A stretch of DNA of 40,540 nucleotides from an uncultured Acidobacteriaceae bacterium (GTDB lineage: Bacteria; Acidobacteriota; Terriglobia; Terriglobales; Acidobacteriaceae), in NCBI GenBank assembly GCA_964408515.1, contig CAYOZX010000001.1, forward strand, positions 1-40,540. The letters are read 5' to 3'. The notes beneath the pieces are model-generated. The model saw only the letters and a list, made by a program, of their open reading frames with translations. It did not search any database and was not told the DNA's origin. Below, piece after piece: positions 19,500-35,742 of this stretch. The number at the start of each line of letters is the position of its first letter. Positions within the stretch are counted from its first letter, which is position 1. The translations under genes were made by a program, and so were the position numbers.

Positions 19500-20267
19500 A
19501 TGTTCCCGCGCAGCGCTGCAAGTCGTCCGAAACCGGAAGACTTTGGGCCGACGCCCGCCAGTGGTGACGTTACCAAGCTGATCGAAACTACACTTCCCTA
19601 CTCCCACGCCATCGCCGCAGAAGTGATCCGGAAGCTGCCTCCCGACCTGGAAAAGAAAGACATTCAAGGGTGGGCTGAACTGGGACTGGTGGAAGCCGCC
19701 AATTCGTTCGACCCGGCGCGCGGCGTGCAGTTCAAGACCTTCGCCTACTACCGGATCAAGGGCGCTATTTATGACGGACTCCGTAAGATGGGCTGGTATC
19801 CGAAGGGCCAATACCGGCAAATGCGCTTCGAGATGGCGGCCAATGAATATCTGAAGGATGTCTCCGCCGGGCCCTTCGCCTCCGCTGCCGCCGAATCGCA
19901 CTTGTTGAACCTGAAGGATTTAACCGCCAACGTTGCCACCTGCTACATGCTCTCTTTAGAAGGCTTGGCGCAGGAACCCGCCGATCTGCGGCGGGTTTCC
20001 GCCGAGGAGGCGGTGGTTCGCGCCGAGCAGGACCGGCACCTGAGGCGGACTCTGGCGCAGCTTCCGGCCACGAACCGCCAGATTCTGGAGCACTGCTATT
20101 TTCAGGGGCTGACGCTGGAGCAAATCGGCCGCAAGCTGGGGTTGTCCAAGTCGTGGGTCTGCCGGCTCCACGCCAAGTCGCTGGAAATGCTGCGCAAGAA
20201 ACTCTCCCAGGCATCCACGGCGGGGCCGGGCCTGTCGCAGGCAACGTTTACAGGAACTATCCGATAA
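19500..20267 (+). CDS. FliA/WhiG-family (sigma-28-type) RNA polymerase sigma factor
   Basis: The tracked ORF begins at 19299, but the ATG at 19500 has an AAAGAGGAG Shine-Dalgarno sequence 7 nt upstream and gives a 255-aa protein. Region 2 reads FKTFAYYRIKGAIYDGLRKMGW and region 4 reads LTLEQIGRKLGLSKSWVCRLHAKSLEMLRKKL, both FliA-like. Confidence 0.85.
   Translation: MFPRSAASRPKPEDFGPTPASGDVTKLIETTLPYSHAIAAEVIRKLPPDLEKKDIQGWAELGLVEAANSFDPARGVQFKTFAYYRIKGAIYDGLRKMGWYPKGQYRQMRFEMAANEYLKDVSAGPFASAAAESHLLNLKDLTANVATCYMLSLEGLAQEPADLRRVSAEEAVVRAEQDRHLRRTLAQLPATNRQILEHCYFQGLTLEQIGRKLGLSKSWVCRLHAKSLEMLRKKLSQASTAGPGLSQATFTGTIR
20241..20267 (+). promoter_or_regulatory. Candidate sigma-28-like promoter (GCAAC-N16-CGATAA), copy 1
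   Basis: aGGCAACgtttacaggaactatcCGATAAggtg. The motif overlaps the sigma-gene stop and lies immediately upstream of the SctI-like gene. It has the same architecture as copies at 30846 and 35716. Confidence 0.5.
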
Positions 20268-20268
20268 G

Positions 20269-20820
20269 GTGGATGTCATGGTGGACCCGATCGTCAGCAA
20301 GGCGCCGGTCAAGCCCACGCATTCCGCAGTGGAGGGAGAAACCGGCCCTCTAAAGACGAGCGAGTCCAAATTTGACAAAGTCCGTCTGCGGCTGCAGGAA
20401 CAGCAGGCCCAGCAGCTTCAGATTCCGCCGGAAGTCAAGCAGGTCCCGCCGGAGCAGAAAAAAGTGCTGCAGGCTGACCTGTCGCGGCGGCTGGATAAGA
20501 GCAAAGGAGTCACGCCCCACCAGGTGTTCGGGGTCGACATGAAACGGGCCAGGGAGAGAGTCGAGCACCTGACCACCCGCGTCAATGCGCTGCCCAAGAC
20601 CTCGGCGTTCGATCCCATCCGCACCCGGCTGACCAGTATTGATTCGCAGTACAAATCGGCGGGGCAACTCCTGGAGTCGCTCAAGAATGCCGACAATCCA
20701 CGCGATCTGATGAAAATCCAGATGCAGATGTACCAGTTGACGGAGAATCTGGAACTGATGAGCAAAGTCGTGGACCAGGTGACTTCTGGCATGAAGTCGA
20801 TTTTTCAGACGCAACTGTAG
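20269..20820 (+). CDS. sctI: T3SS inner-rod-like protein (SctI/YscI/PrgJ-type C-terminus), unusually long
   Basis: The C-terminus DLMKIQMQMYQLTENLELMSKVVDQVTSGMKSIFQTQL resembles the conserved SctI tail (...LQ...L.SKVVgK.tq.id.L.k.Q). It sits directly upstream of sctJ. The N-terminal 120 aa or so are unrecognised, and the start could be the ATG at 20278. Confidence 0.55.
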   Translation: MDVMVDPIVSKAPVKPTHSAVEGETGPLKTSESKFDKVRLRLQEQQAQQLQIPPEVKQVPPEQKKVLQADLSRRLDKSKGVTPHQVFGVDMKRARERVEHLTTRVNALPKTSAFDPIRTRLTSIDSQYKSAGQLLESLKNADNPRDLMKIQMQMYQLTENLELMSKVVDQVTSGMKSIFQTQL

Positions 20821-20847
20821 GCAGAACTGCTTCCACCGAGGATCGAT

Positions 20848-21684
20848 TTGCGCGGACGACATCTTGCCAAGCCGATTGTGCTGCTGTCTCTGACCTTGTT
20901 TCTGAGCGCCTGCCTGAGGCATGAACTCCAGACCGGTCTGACCGAGCAAGGCGCCCAGGAAATCGTGGTCTTGCTGAACGAAAATGGCATCGACGCCTCG
21001 GCGGTCAAGGAGGCGAGCGAGAAGAAGGGCGAGGAGAAGTGGAGCGTCCTGATCCGGGGCGGAGACCAGAACCTGGCCCATGCCTGGCAGGTCTTGCAGG
21101 AAAACGGACTGCCGCGGGAGAAGGACAAGTCGCTGGAGGACGTTTTCGCCAACTCGGGGATGATTCCCACGGCGACGGAAGAGAAAGCCCGGCTGCTGAT
21201 GGGAGTATCGGGCGAGATCAACCGCACGCTCAAGGCGGTGGCCGGGGTGGTGGACGCCAGGGTCCTGGTGGTCATGCCGGACAACAGTCCCCTGCTGGAC
21301 AAGAGCGAGCGCGTCGCCCCCACGGCCTCGGTGCTGATCAAGTATCGCGGCAACGATCTGCCGCTGAGCGAAGAAGACGTGAGGAAGCTGGTGGCGCGGG
21401 CGGTGGAAGGGCTGCAGCCGGAGAATGTGGCCGTGGTGTACAAGAAAATTTCCATCCGGCAGGCGAGCGACCGCAACCTTATTCCCCAGCTCGGCAACCA
21501 GGAGTTTCTGGTGGCTTCGCTGGTTCTGTTGACCATCTCCAGCGTGGGATGCCTTGCCTTGATCGGCAAAAGCCGCTGGCAGAAGTCGAAGATCGAGAAG
21601 TTGGAGCAGCAGTTGCAAGCTGCGCAACGTCCCGCGCCGGCGCAGATTGCGGAGGCTCCGAAGAACGTCGCGAGGGTGAGTTGA
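20848..21684 (+). CDS. sctJ: T3SS inner-membrane ring lipoprotein SctJ (YscJ/EscJ/HrcJ family)
   Basis: It has a lipobox (LFLSAC) and the motifs LQTGLTEQGAQEIVVLLNENGIDA and VVDARVLVVMP...APTASVLIKY. A C-terminal TM (FLVASLVLLTISSVGCLALI) completes the classic SctJ layout. Confidence 0.9.
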   Translation: MRGRHLAKPIVLLSLTLFLSACLRHELQTGLTEQGAQEIVVLLNENGIDASAVKEASEKKGEEKWSVLIRGGDQNLAHAWQVLQENGLPREKDKSLEDVFANSGMIPTATEEKARLLMGVSGEINRTLKAVAGVVDARVLVVMPDNSPLLDKSERVAPTASVLIKYRGNDLPLSEEDVRKLVARAVEGLQPENVAVVYKKISIRQASDRNLIPQLGNQEFLVASLVLLTISSVGCLALIGKSRWQKSKIEKLEQQLQAAQRPAPAQIAEAPKNVARVS

Positions 21685-34500: not shown

Positions 34501-34513
34501 GCGGGCACGGGGG

Positions 34514-35383
34514 CTAGCCGGAACGGATGTTGCCCGGGCGGGTGGCCAGGAGGTCGCGGAACAGGGATGCGAACTTTCTCTTGATGGTGAAGCCGGCGTC
34601 GACCAGGAGGCGGTGCGCGAAGCTGCGCTCCCGGACAAAGGTGGCGGTGAAGGGCGGCCGGTAATGCTGTTGTGAGAGGTGACGCAGCAAGGCGCAGGCT
34701 GCAGGCATCGAGGAATTGAGCGAGCGGATGTCCAGCAGGCTGGTAGTGGTGGCCTGCGTGTGAGCCACGGCATAGGCCTGCAGGGTATCGCCGGAGAAAG
34801 CGCCGAGAAACTCAAGAAAGGGCGCGGCGTGGCGGAGAAAGCTGGGGCGCTGGCACCAGTGAAACAGTTCGCCAGGCGGTAGCGCGAGGCGGGAAAGAAG
34901 TTCAAGGGGCACGGGGCGGATGGCAAAATCCGGGTCCAGGTCGGGCAGCCGTGGGGTTTCTGCTTGCATGTCCATGAGACCGCTGTCGGGCAGGGCCTGA
35001 ATGAAGCGATAGCGGCGCACGGGACGGTCAGGGACCGAGTCTCCATGCAGCGCGATGTAGCCGTGATCGCGCAGCTTGCGGCAGCTGAGGTCAAACAGGG
35101 TGAGGGAGATGCGGCTGGCCCGGAACTGGGGAAGTGCGCCCCAGTAGATGGTGTAGGCGTCGCGCGCTTCCGGATCGGTGCAGTTGACGATGAGCGAGGC
35201 GGGTTCGCCACTGACGTAACCCAGCAGGGTGTGTTCGAAAGAGACGTTCCAGTAGCGGGCGAAGTTGAGAAAGCCGAACATGTCGAGGTGCCACTCGTAA
35301 GACATGCCGCGGGAAGATTCGTTCATGATCCGAATGGCGTCGGGAAGATTTTGCAGGGTGAGCGGGCAGGGATCCCCGGGCAT
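34514..35383 (-). CDS. Hypothetical protein, the only minus-strand gene inside the cluster (tentative two-lobed GNAT-like fold)
   Basis: The 289-aa ORF has coding-like composition and converges on sctV with a 13-nt gap. No catalytic motif could be confirmed by eye, and the GNAT-like assignment rests on general sequence character only. Confidence 0.45.
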   Translation of the reverse strand: MPGDPCPLTLQNLPDAIRIMNESSRGMSYEWHLDMFGFLNFARYWNVSFEHTLLGYVSGEPASLIVNCTDPEARDAYTIYWGALPQFRASRISLTLFDLSCRKLRDHGYIALHGDSVPDRPVRRYRFIQALPDSGLMDMQAETPRLPDLDPDFAIRPVPLELLSRLALPPGELFHWCQRPSFLRHAAPFLEFLGAFSGDTLQAYAVAHTQATTTSLLDIRSLNSSMPAACALLRHLSQQHYRPPFTATFVRERSFAHRLLVDAGFTIKRKFASLFRDLLATRPGNIRSG

Positions 35384-35436
35384 GGGAAGGCGATGATACT
35401 ACAGGGAGATTCGGGAAGAGGAGGAGGTGTGGGACG

Positions 35437-35742
35437 ATGAGAAGCGCAGCGAAAGTACCACGGCCGGCGGAGGGAGAAAGAGACGACGCCGGCTGGCGCC
35501 AATTTCCGGAGTTTGAGGCTCTGCTGGCTGCCGAACCGCCCGCGCCCCTGCTGGCGAAGGTGGAGAAGACCTGCCGGCGGCTGAACGACATAGCCCAGTC
35601 CGGATCGGCGGCAGACCAGGCTCGCGCCAAATCGGCTATGACCGCTTACGGGCGCTCGCTGGACCTGTTGCGCATACTGAGCGAGATGAGGGACAAAGCC
35701 GTGGAGGCGGAGATAGCAACAAAGCCGGCAAAACCCCGATAA
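35437..35742 (+). CDS. Small helical hypothetical protein (101 aa), positionally YscE-like
   Basis: A strong Shine-Dalgarno sequence (GAGGAGGAGG) precedes the ATG. The C-terminal half is predicted helical (LLAKVEKTCRRLNDIAQ...AYGRSLDLLRILSEMRDKAVEAE). It lies directly upstream of the needle-like gene. Confidence 0.5.
   Translation: MRSAAKVPRPAEGERDDAGWRQFPEFEALLAAEPPAPLLAKVEKTCRRLNDIAQSGSAADQARAKSAMTAYGRSLDLLRILSEMRDKAVEAEIATKPAKPR
35716..35742 (+). promoter_or_regulatory. Candidate sigma-28-like promoter (GCAAC-N16-CGATAA), copy 3
   Basis: TAGCAACaaagccggcaaaaccCCGATAAtctg ends 21 nt before the ATG of the needle-like gene, whose AGGAGG Shine-Dalgarno sequence lies in between. The motif overlaps the stop of the upstream small ORF. 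Confidence 0.55.

Follow-up and report, generated by a model that had tools for sequence, protein, structure and literature searches.

A 40,540-nt stretch of DNA from an uncultured Acidobacteriaceae bacterium (the window, analysed over its whole length) carries a cluster for a non-flagellar form of type III secretion system (T3SS) on its + strand at ~19.5-37.5 kb, together with a sigma-28-like sigma factor gene and a recurrent two-box motif, GCAAC-N16/17-CGATAA. We found that this motif is kept at equivalent positions in related T3SS clusters and co-occurs with the sigma gene, and we propose that it constitutes the promoter class of the sigma factor encoded at 19500-20267, a reading to which we assign a probability of about 0.8. 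All results presented here are computational.

Distribution and conservation of the two-box motif

The N16 form of the motif matches the window exactly three times, always on the + strand, at the sites designated P1, P2 and P3 (Table 1), and was absent from all 100 dinucleotide-preserving shuffles of the window. An earlier reading of this DNA from its letters alone (the sequence-only reading) had described these three sites of identical architecture, and they are exact at the positions that it gave. Its count of three holds for the N16 spacing but overlooked a fourth site with a 17-nt spacer, located inside sctQ at 26199-26226 (PQ). Its chance argument, which multiplied 11 fixed positions (4^11), was overstated, since the pattern was picked from the data themselves. 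To correct for this post hoc choice, we fixed CGATAA, the known sigma-28 -10 core, which occurs ~10 times in the window; in 23 of 5,000 shuffles, at least three of its occurrences had some 5-mer in common at the same offset (p ~0.005). The significance obtainable from the window alone is thus suggestive, modest and not overwhelming.

For a comparative survey, a scan for SctU with one genome per species provided 80 loci with 10-kb flanks, including the Acidobacteriota loci L001-L029 and L040, and the control set consisted of 49 T3SS loci outside that phylum (Myxococcota, Chromatiales, Bordetella/Achromobacter, Vibrio and others). The window and 30 Acidobacteriota loci (558 kb) contained 97 sites, comprising 67 N16 sites on the + and one on the - strand and 28 N17 sites on the + and one on the - strand, against 0.38 expected from composition. 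The control loci (875 kb; 0.40 expected) contained two, both + strand N17 sites in a single Myxococcota locus, and no N16 site on either strand. Spacers were exclusively N16 and N17, with no site at N14, N15 or N18, and 95 of the 97 Acidobacteriota sites were co-directional with the genes. Ninety-three lay within the T3SS cluster, and the other four were located at most 2 kb from its edge, each upstream of a same-strand gene. The motif is retained, with variable spacer sequence, in Terriglobales, Bryobacterales and one Pyrinomonas metagenome-assembled genome (MAG), and its sites occupy the same gene junctions across Terriglobales, most of them recurring in Bryobacterales. Among 64 distinct N16 sites the spacers were near-random while both boxes were fixed; CGATAA does not vary because the search was built on it, but it recurs 97 times.

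The excess of sites (97 versus 0.38), their fixed junctions, and fixed boxes flanking scrambled spacers indicate that GCAAC-N16/17-CGATAA is a cis-element under selection, neither a chance similarity nor a by-product of coding. An origin by chance or protein-coding constraint would accord with two of the three original sites lying in coding sequence and with the limited window-only p value, but is refuted by the comparative counts, by the retention of the boxes at non-coding positions beside scrambled spacers, and by synonymous-site and amino-acid-change evidence at PQ that points to selection on DNA.

The individual sites show distinct and recurrent layouts. P1 is found at the sigma/sctI junction in 19 loci, 17 of which have the arrangement CGATAA-N9-11-ATG lacking a Shine-Dalgarno sequence. 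The P2 junction is occupied in most Terriglobales loci, by an N16 site or, in L012, an N17 site, and CTGTAGTGAGTTTGGGAC is conserved directly 3' of its -10 box. At the P3 junction, ~20 loci share an N16 or N17 site followed by CGATAA-N19-22-ATG, with AGGAGG 6-8 nt past the -10. The sequence-only reading had placed each site 1-190 nt before a start codon and over the stop codon of the preceding gene. The conserved start codons lie 10 nt (ATG 20278), 185 nt (ATG 31058) and 21 nt (ATG 35764) beyond P1, P2 and P3, which agrees with that range, but GTG 20269 is not the conserved start after P1; the stop-codon overlap is true of all three sites but incidental, as the promoters of relatives often lie past the stop.

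Geometry of the proposed promoter and its probable assignment to the cluster sigma factor

The E. coli sigma-28 consensus is TAAAGTTT-n11-GCCGATAA (PMC2859248), and in the open complex of Pseudomonas aeruginosa sigma-28 at the fliC promoter TCTAAAG spans -36 to -30 and GCCGATAA spans -15 to -8 (PMC12784957). The N16 class, GCAACnTy-N11-ycCGATAA, has a geometry identical to TAAAGTTT-N11-GCCGATAA, and the N17 class is one nucleotide longer. Both promoter types share CGATAA, A-32, A-31 and T-28, while the -35 core GCAAC (-34 to -30) replaces TAAAG. The full N16 pattern, tA-GCAAC-nTy-N12-c-CGATAA-CTnGr, contains weaker preferences at T-36, A-35, T-28, C-14, C-7, T-6 and G-4. The base preceding CGATAA (-14) is C in 37 of 64 sites, and the extended -10 'GC' is not conserved, position -15 being A in 7, C in 26, G in 7 and T in 24 sites. 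With the end of the -10 placed at -8, the predicted +1 position carries a purine in 56 of the 64 sites, 41 of which have G. On this basis, extrapolated from the one P. aeruginosa structure, transcription is predicted to start at ~20275 for P1, giving a leaderless-like 2-4 nt leader before the sctI ATG; at ~26234 for PQ; at ~30880 for P2, giving a 178-nt leader; and at ~35750 for P3, at the AGGAGG Shine-Dalgarno sequence.

Because start codons follow the motif at P1 and P3 by only 9-22 nt, no other promoter fits at these positions. This lack of room for a separate promoter argues against a non-promoter function, in which the boxes would be a bipartite transcription-factor site or a stop-codon-linked RNA or translation signal. 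Contact of all three original sites with a stop codon and the existence of fixed-spacing bipartite sites for dimeric regulators lend this idea some appeal. The boxes are, however, asymmetric and co-directional with genes (95/97), only spacers of 16 and 17 nt occur, the stop-codon position varies in relatives, PQ lies deep inside a gene, and no Rfam family matches; we therefore regard a non-promoter role as very improbable.

The sigma gene, starting at ATG 19500 behind ACAGGAGC in agreement with an alignment of relatives, encodes a protein whose best family is TIGR02479 FliA_WhiG (E 7e-33, 114.2 bits), followed by SigB/F/G (68.5 bits); the Sigma70_ECF Pfam model reached an E value of only 0.007. 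Its residues 19-242 and 33-237 align by phmmer with P. aeruginosa FliA and with WhiG, respectively, through region 3. The nearest solved structures are WhiG (6pfv), P. aeruginosa FliA (9wsm), Aquifex FliA (1rp3) and E. coli FliA. In the phmmer alignment, the -10-reading residues of P. aeruginosa FliA correspond to R85 (R80), D92 (D87), D71 (D66) and F81 (Y76), and F81, R85, D92 and D71 are invariant among 18 members of the sigma clade. The extended -10 reader R97 is replaced in most relatives by lysine (K102), a change that matches the non-conserved 'GC' extension.

The region 4.2 helix reads SKSWVCRLH in place of the canonical SESRVSQLH, with the -35 contact Q228 becoming R222; in the canonical helix, S224 and Q228 contact the -35 element. 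Across Terriglobales and Bryobacterales SKSWVCRLH does not vary, and the Pyrinomonas MAG has it almost unchanged, paralleling GCAAC. Source annotations call the gene simply 'FliA' or 'sigma-70 family'. Considering its score below the curated family threshold (given below), its different 4.2 helix, its different -35 element and the absence of flagellar genes under its control, the best reading is that it represents a new sigma-28-like subfamily rather than a FliA orthologue.

The distribution of the motif follows that of the sigma gene. All 21 loci with a visible sigma gene carry the motif, compared with 9 of the 60 loci lacking one, and among these nine, seven are contigs that stop short of the sctI side, one locus is rearranged and one is from Myxococcota. 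The Edaphobacter loci L023 and L026 retain T3SS synteny with a kinase gene at the sigma position, and no motif was found in them even with one mismatch allowed. An exhaustive, profile-free search with the sigma protein recovered 104 representative clusters at E <= 1e-30, and the helix S[KR]SW.[SC]R.H is present in 91 of the 150 best representatives. Eight sigma representatives with 32-42% identity were inspected; seven of them have T3SS genes around or next to them, typically in the order sigma, SctI/needle_F-like gene, sctJ. An exact GCAAC-N16/17-CGATAA was located at or near the sigma 3' end in five of the seven distant loci whose DNA was examined (GC content 53-73%), and sigmas with as little as 32-38% identity are among the carriers. 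The sole non-T3SS case (L083:1643-1669 and L084:1140-1166, GC 72%) displays the same layout, the TAA of the motif forming the sigma stop and the next ATG lying 9 nt on, which indicates that the sigma/promoter pair is not restricted to T3SS. The downstream genes there are a 122-aa open reading frame (ORF) and an ABC1 kinase gene.

Several observations weigh against assigning the motif to this sigma factor. The sigma score of 114.2 bits falls below the curated TIGR02479 cut-off of 189.6 bits; the FliA family named by the sequence-only reading is still its best match. Group-3 sigma factors consist of regions 2, 3 and 4, lack region 1.1 and measure ~240-260 aa, and in this 255-aa protein Pfam detects regions 2 and 4 and not region 3. 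The Myxococcota locus L036 has two N17 sites and no sigma gene in its 21 kb, and the distant sigma loci L081 (GC 48%) and L087 (GC 37%) carry no exact motif. The loci share ancestry, and the motif counts and the Fisher test consequently overstate independence; the specificity of the motif is judged over ~100 kb of non-T3SS flank. Translation of a message with the 2-4 nt leader predicted at P1 would have to be of leaderless type or coupled to the sigma stop. Finally, promoters of extracytoplasmic function (ECF) sigma factors typically have an 'AAC' -35 and a 'CGT'-like -10, 16-17 nt apart, and GCAAC resembles an ECF -35.

These points bear on a second possibility, that the motif is a promoter read by an unlinked sigma factor, either ECF-type or a true flagellar FliA encoded elsewhere, with the cluster sigma serving another purpose. 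The departure of GCAAC from the canonical TAAAG and the sigma-less sites of L036 are compatible with it, as are ECF-type sigma genes adjoining the clade sigma in L088 and L089. We nevertheless consider an unlinked reader improbable, given that the motif accompanies the sigma 3' end down to 32% identity and across GC contents of 53-73%, including a non-T3SS context, and is missing from syntenic clusters that lack the sigma gene. In addition, the -10 box matches the sigma-28 hexamer and its reading residues are kept, the 4.2 helix of the clade is as invariant as the -35 box, and the window ORFs that were translated or scanned, a subset of all ORFs, showed no second sigma gene. Assignment to the cluster's own sigma factor, as the sequence-only reading had proposed for its sigma-28-type signature, is thus favoured by the conservation of the motif, its presence in 21/21 sigma loci, its absence from sigma-less syntenic clusters and its movement with distant clade members.

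Isolated exact motif matches also occur in Myxococcota T3SS loci (L030:4230; L036:4038 and 12330), one of them directly after a homologue of the chaperone gene at 30460-30846, and no sigma gene was seen within the locus DNA examined for L030 and L036. The regulon logic may extend to Myxococcota.

Predicted transcription units of the secretion system

The cluster encodes a core export apparatus and sorting platform (SctR, S, T, U, V, N, L, Q and J), and its SctU relatives with 71-86% identity bear Acidobacteriota (Terriglobales-like) names. No secretin SctC was found among the scanned ORFs of the 40.5-kb window or in the gene tables of L081, L085 and L086, and it could be encoded elsewhere. The scanned window ORFs likewise included no flagellar rod, hook, filament or motor genes. 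'Injectisome' may be a misnomer for a cluster that has no secretin in view and bears a FliO-like gene.

Table 1. Coordinates of the sigma gene, motif sites, T3SS genes and predicted units in the window
Feature	Position	Strand	Remarks
Sigma-70-like match	19299-19327	+	TTGACA-17-TACGAT, ~170 nt upstream of the sigma gene; one match versus 2.9 expected in shuffles
Sigma-28-like (FliA/WhiG-related) sigma gene	19500-20267	+	255 aa; Pfam Sigma70_r2 and r4; TIGR02479
P1	20241-20267	+	GCAAC-N16-CGATAA, last 27 nt of the sigma gene; its TAA is the sigma stop
Putative unit after P1	20278-30846	+	sctI-like gene through TPR chaperone; intergenic gaps 0-30 nt; synteny in L001-L028
sctI-like	20278-20820	+	weak T3SS_basalb_I match
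sctJ, small ORF (21698-21964), sctL, sctN, sctO, sctP (FliK/HpaP-like), sctQ, fliO-like, sctR, sctS, sctT, sctU	20848-30031	+	
sctQ	25073-26509	+	N-terminal FHA, C-terminal FliMN_C (FliN-like)
PQ	26199-26226	+	GCAAC-N17-CGATAA inside sctQ; internal promoter candidate
Putative SctQ-C unit	26236-26509	+	Shine-Dalgarno AAGGAG 26236-26241; in-frame GTG 26249 (sctQ codon 393); 86 aa
FliO-like gene	26523-26942	+	PF04347, E 1.6e-13; precedes sctR
Small ORF	30055-30456	+	
SycD/SctY-like TPR chaperone	30460-30846	+	
P2	30846-30872	+	GCAAC-N16-CGATAA; its first G ends the TAG stop codon of the chaperone ORF 30460-30846
Putative unit after P2	31058-34500	+	196-aa Gly-rich protein, TPR chaperone, sctV; sctV co-transcription probable
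Gly-rich 196-aa protein	31058-31648	+	
SycD/LcrH-type TPR chaperone	31694-32212	+	
sctV	32362-34500	+	
Conserved 289-aa gene	34514-35383	-	no Pfam match; between sctV and ORF 35437-35742; 47-62% identical, full length, in relatives
Small ORF	35437-35742	+	
P3	35716-35742	+	GCAAC-N16-CGATAA, last 27 nt of ORF 35437-35742; its TAA is that stop
Putative unit after P3	35764-37448	+	121-aa Gly-rich protein, CdsG-like TPR protein, 120-aa ORF, FHA and transmembrane protein
Gly-rich 121-aa protein	35764-36129	+	
Doubtful one-mismatch match	36116-36142	+	GCAAC-N16-CGAAAA, before the CdsG-like gene
CdsG-like TPR protein	36159-36563	+	
120-aa ORF	36576-36938	+	
FHA and transmembrane protein	36942-37448	+	168 aa, SctD N-terminus-like

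In the mechanism that we propose, the sigma factor on core RNA polymerase would recognise CGATAA (about -13 to -8) through the region-2 residues that FliA also uses, and GCAAC (about -34 to -30) through the altered region 4.2 helix SKSWVCRLH, with transcription beginning ~8 nt past the last A of CGATAA. From P1, sctI to sctU and two additional genes would be transcribed, probably into an mRNA with almost no leader; PQ would initiate inside sctQ, probably yielding the FliN-like SctQ-C and boosting fliO-sctRSTU; P2 would drive the 196-aa Gly-rich protein, its chaperone and sctV; and P3 the 121-aa Gly-rich protein, its chaperone-like partner and the FHA protein. These four units would cover every + strand T3SS gene save the sigma gene and ORF 35437-35742. 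The gap before sctV (32213-32361) is motif-free. The best reading of this arrangement is that one sigma factor drives the whole T3SS, a logic that would be closer to HrpL than to the late-gene tier of flagella.

No GCAAC/CGATAA motif was detected upstream of the sigma gene in the window, which suggests that the input to the system is sigma expression, probably from a housekeeping-type promoter, or sigma release, after which the whole machine and its substrates would be switched on together. The sigma-70-like match at 19299-19327 could possibly represent such a housekeeping-sigma input, although matches of this kind are no commoner in the window than in its shuffles. A subset of relatives has a sigma-70-like TTGCCT...TGGTGTAnACT upstream of the sigma gene. 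We also sought a conserved promoter by aligning 19 upstream regions, which proved mostly unalignable, and discarded this approach. Read-through from the sigma gene's own promoter would give basal expression of the operon, and P1, sitting inside the sigma gene, would amplify the operon and not the sigma factor itself. Translation of sctI would be leaderless or would take place on the read-through transcript, coupled to the sigma stop 10 nt upstream.

The composition of these units bears directly on a flagellar-style checkpoint, in which a secreted FlgM-like anti-sigma factor would hold the sigma until the basal body is done and only late, extracellular parts would be transcribed by it. The sequence-only reading had advanced this restriction to late parts, and it is not supported, since P1 heads sctI-J-L-N-O-P-Q-fliO-R-S-T-U, PQ lies inside sctQ and P2 precedes sctV. 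The family relation of the sigma to FliA speaks for a checkpoint, as do the positions of P2 and P3 before Gly-rich proteins with dedicated TPR chaperones, as expected of secreted substrates, and the additional Bryobacterales sites before further Gly-rich and LysM/PG-binding proteins. A precedent for a secreted antagonist of T3SS regulators exists in BtrA of Bordetella (PMC10732220). Early genes, however, bear the motif, with P1 serving a basal-body, ATPase and export-gate operon and PQ lying within it, and no FlgM-like family was recovered from the small cluster ORFs by Pfam at E values up to 1. A late-gene checkpoint is accordingly an unlikely account of the regulon, and control of the whole system by one sigma factor remains preferred; a secreted anti-sigma layered on such a whole-system regulon is possible.

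The internal site PQ provides evidence of selection at the DNA level. It is exact in the window and 17 related loci, where its boxes are held by codon choice: Ser-Asn is always encoded by AGC-AAC, the Asp codon is always GAT (43% GAT among the Asp codons of these genes), and the codon before GAT always ends in C, whatever the residue. In L022 the boxes are retained despite changed amino acids (R-N...V-D-N), and in the sctQ of the sigma-less Edaphobacter locus L026 they are lost. Codon choice, the L022 substitutions and this loss together argue that PQ is maintained as DNA. A Shine-Dalgarno sequence lies 10 nt downstream of PQ, and 16 of 18 loci have a Shine-Dalgarno-like run with an in-frame GTG or TTG 7-8 nt later. 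The PF01052 FliMN_C domain covers SctQ residues 407-475, and we infer that the 86-aa SctQ-C product would correspond to this FliN-like domain.

Injectisomes produce SctQ-C internally (YscQ-C, SpaO-C, Spa33-C), while flagella have separate fliM and fliN genes. The predicted product resembles those of injectisomes in being a FliN-like C-terminal polypeptide of ~86 aa within sctQ with its own Shine-Dalgarno sequence and in-frame start. It differs in the conserved candidate internal promoter 10 nt before the internal Shine-Dalgarno; descriptions of the known cases are, to our knowledge, confined to translation that begins internally on the full mRNA. FliN-like SctQ-C may thus be supplied from a dedicated internal promoter and not just by internal translation.

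Around P2 and P3, several features deserve description. The leader after P2 measures ~50 nt in relatives, and the window carries ~135 nt extra; the leader of the window (~30900-31035) contains a GC-rich hairpin-like stretch (gcgctc...gagcgc) and has no Rfam match. Scans of the window for Rfam families and tRNA genes found nothing, and a terminator scan remained at background level and was uninformative on unit ends. The one-mismatch match at 36116-36142 was rejected as a further site, as the orthologous junction had no match in any other locus. A 1000-aa minus-strand ORF (32209-35211) was discarded as an antisense artefact of sctV.

The sequence-only reading took the Gly-rich proteins encoded after P2 and P3 as putative secreted or needle-class products; for the needle class we obtained no support from hidden Markov models, PDB sequences or structure prediction. 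Searches with phmmer, with a 17-sequence profile against PDB sequences and with Pfam on 17 orthologues gave no T3SS match for the 121-aa and 196-aa proteins, and needle identity was dropped. The AF2 model of the 121-aa protein, built from 32 sequences, was poor (pLDDT 55.7, pTM 0.21). Its gene stands between a small ORF and a CdsG-like gene in an E-F-G-like order. Distant counterparts of the sctI-like gene match T3SS_needle_F, while that of the window matches T3SS_basalb_I only weakly. The chaperone neighbours suggest that the Gly-rich proteins are T3SS substrates.

In Bryobacterales, extra motif sites precede sctU, additional Gly-rich genes whose products share a C-terminus, and genes for LysM/PG-binding proteins 280-590 aa long. 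Sites preceding glycine-zipper-like Gly-rich proteins are L018:11936, L018:13204, L021:12883, L022:12423, L025:11773 (one mismatch), L027:2908 and L027:3967; several of these proteins end in ...MFELISKxIEKQSEMxSKAIAAIK, and a SycD-type chaperone gene usually comes next. Together with the 196-aa protein of the window, this family looks like a variable set of chaperoned substrates. Sites preceding LysM/PG_binding-type proteins lie at cluster edges (L014:18546, L015:20064 on the - strand, L016:18348, L018:9141, L021:8930 and L021:18512) and are exact except for L014 and L016, which have one mismatch; the domains were recognised by eye, not by hidden Markov model. Such proteins may act as effectors secreted by the system or as its peptidoglycan-remodelling enzymes.

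Two Ser/Thr kinase genes flank the cluster, both on the - strand (12749-19018, 2089 aa; 37527-39434, 635 aa). With the FHA domains of SctQ and of the protein encoded at 36942-37448, they hint at a possible phospho-dependent control, and the arrangement is reminiscent of PpkA/Fha1 in the type VI secretion system. Farther upstream, positions 333-3006 and 5389-6879 hold unrelated cargo, namely a BlaR1-type M56 peptidase, an insertion-sequence-type integrase (rve_3) and a beta-lactamase-fold protein.

Relation to known regulators and evolutionary implications

A close parallel is with FliA class-3 promoters, which have in common with the window a sigma of the FliA/WhiG lineage (probably group 3 in the window), the CGATAA core, N16 spacing, A-32, A-31 and T-28, and the -10-contact residues, and which can also sit inside the 3' end of an upstream gene. 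The window differs in having GCAAC instead of TAAAG, no conserved 'GC', the helix SKSWVCRLH and a sigma that scores below the family cut-off. The FliA regulon differs further, that of the window being a non-flagellar T3SS including its early genes, with no FlgM among the small ORFs at Pfam E values up to 1. A conserved intragenic FliA promoter, that of motA inside flhC, constrains the codons of its host gene (bioRxiv 10.1101/188474), as P1 and PQ would; the genes and the sigma subfamily are different, and P1 is embedded in the very gene that encodes the sigma.

WhiG of Streptomyces and other Actinomycetota is likewise a sigma-28-family factor re-used for a non-flagellar programme, and is the best solved-structure match to the window sigma (PMC12871210, 6pfv). 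It keeps the canonical promoter type, is controlled by RsiG and cyclic di-GMP, and acts on another target process; no RsiG-like gene was seen in the window cluster.

In hrp systems, the hrp box is a bipartite promoter repeated before each operon (GGAACC-N15/16-CCACNNA), and hrpL expression is dependent on sigma-54 and HrpRS. A single alternative sigma factor, HrpL, coordinates most T3SS genes in Pseudomonas syringae and Erwinia (PMC5263251). The window sigma is not homologous to HrpL at the subfamily level, HrpL belonging to group 4 (ECF) and reading another box.

The T3SS* of Myxococcota resembles the window cluster in its non-flagellar, secretin-less neighbourhood, its FliO homologue and its occurrence in soil bacteria (PMC3459982, PMC12403147, PMC10849154), and Myxococcota are among the next-closest SctU relatives outside Acidobacteriota. 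The acidobacterial clusters differ in carrying chaperoned Gly-rich proteins. In the literature on the Myxococcus T3SS* we found no dedicated sigma factor or promoter signature, and no publication that our searches recovered describes the present motif or assigns a FliA-type sigma specifically to a non-flagellar T3SS.

These comparisons bear on the origin of the sigma factor. The sequence-only reading saw a flagellar hierarchy transplanted into an injectisome; the sigma could equally have been retained from a flagellar ancestor, as the cluster has no secretin among the scanned ORFs and possesses a FliO-like gene. A more far-reaching and tentative proposal, which we consider possible without favouring it, is that a large undescribed sigma-28-like clade (4.2 helix S-K-S-W-x-[SC]-R-x-H, promoter GCAAC-N16/17-CGATAA) would serve, in Acidobacteriota and several other lineages, as the dedicated master sigma of non-flagellar T3SSs that bear FliO and lack a secretin, representing the FliA of the flagellar ancestor carried along at exaptation. 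Flagellar logic would then persist in a sigma wired to an export machine, possibly with a secreted anti-sigma.

The physical linkage of a FliA-type sigma gene and FliO to a secretin-less T3SS is relevant to the evolution of injectisomes from flagella. Within the sigma-28 family, the pairing of an unchanged -10 with a new -35 and matching changes in region 4.2 could serve as an orthogonal expression pair. Acidobacteriota are among the most abundant and least tractable soil phyla, and genome and metagenome scans for the motif can list genes co-expressed with their T3SS, including candidate secreted proteins. If the ancestral master-sigma proposal is true, the motif would be a tool already in hand for detecting the substrates and effectors of T3SSs in soil bacteria that are uncultured.

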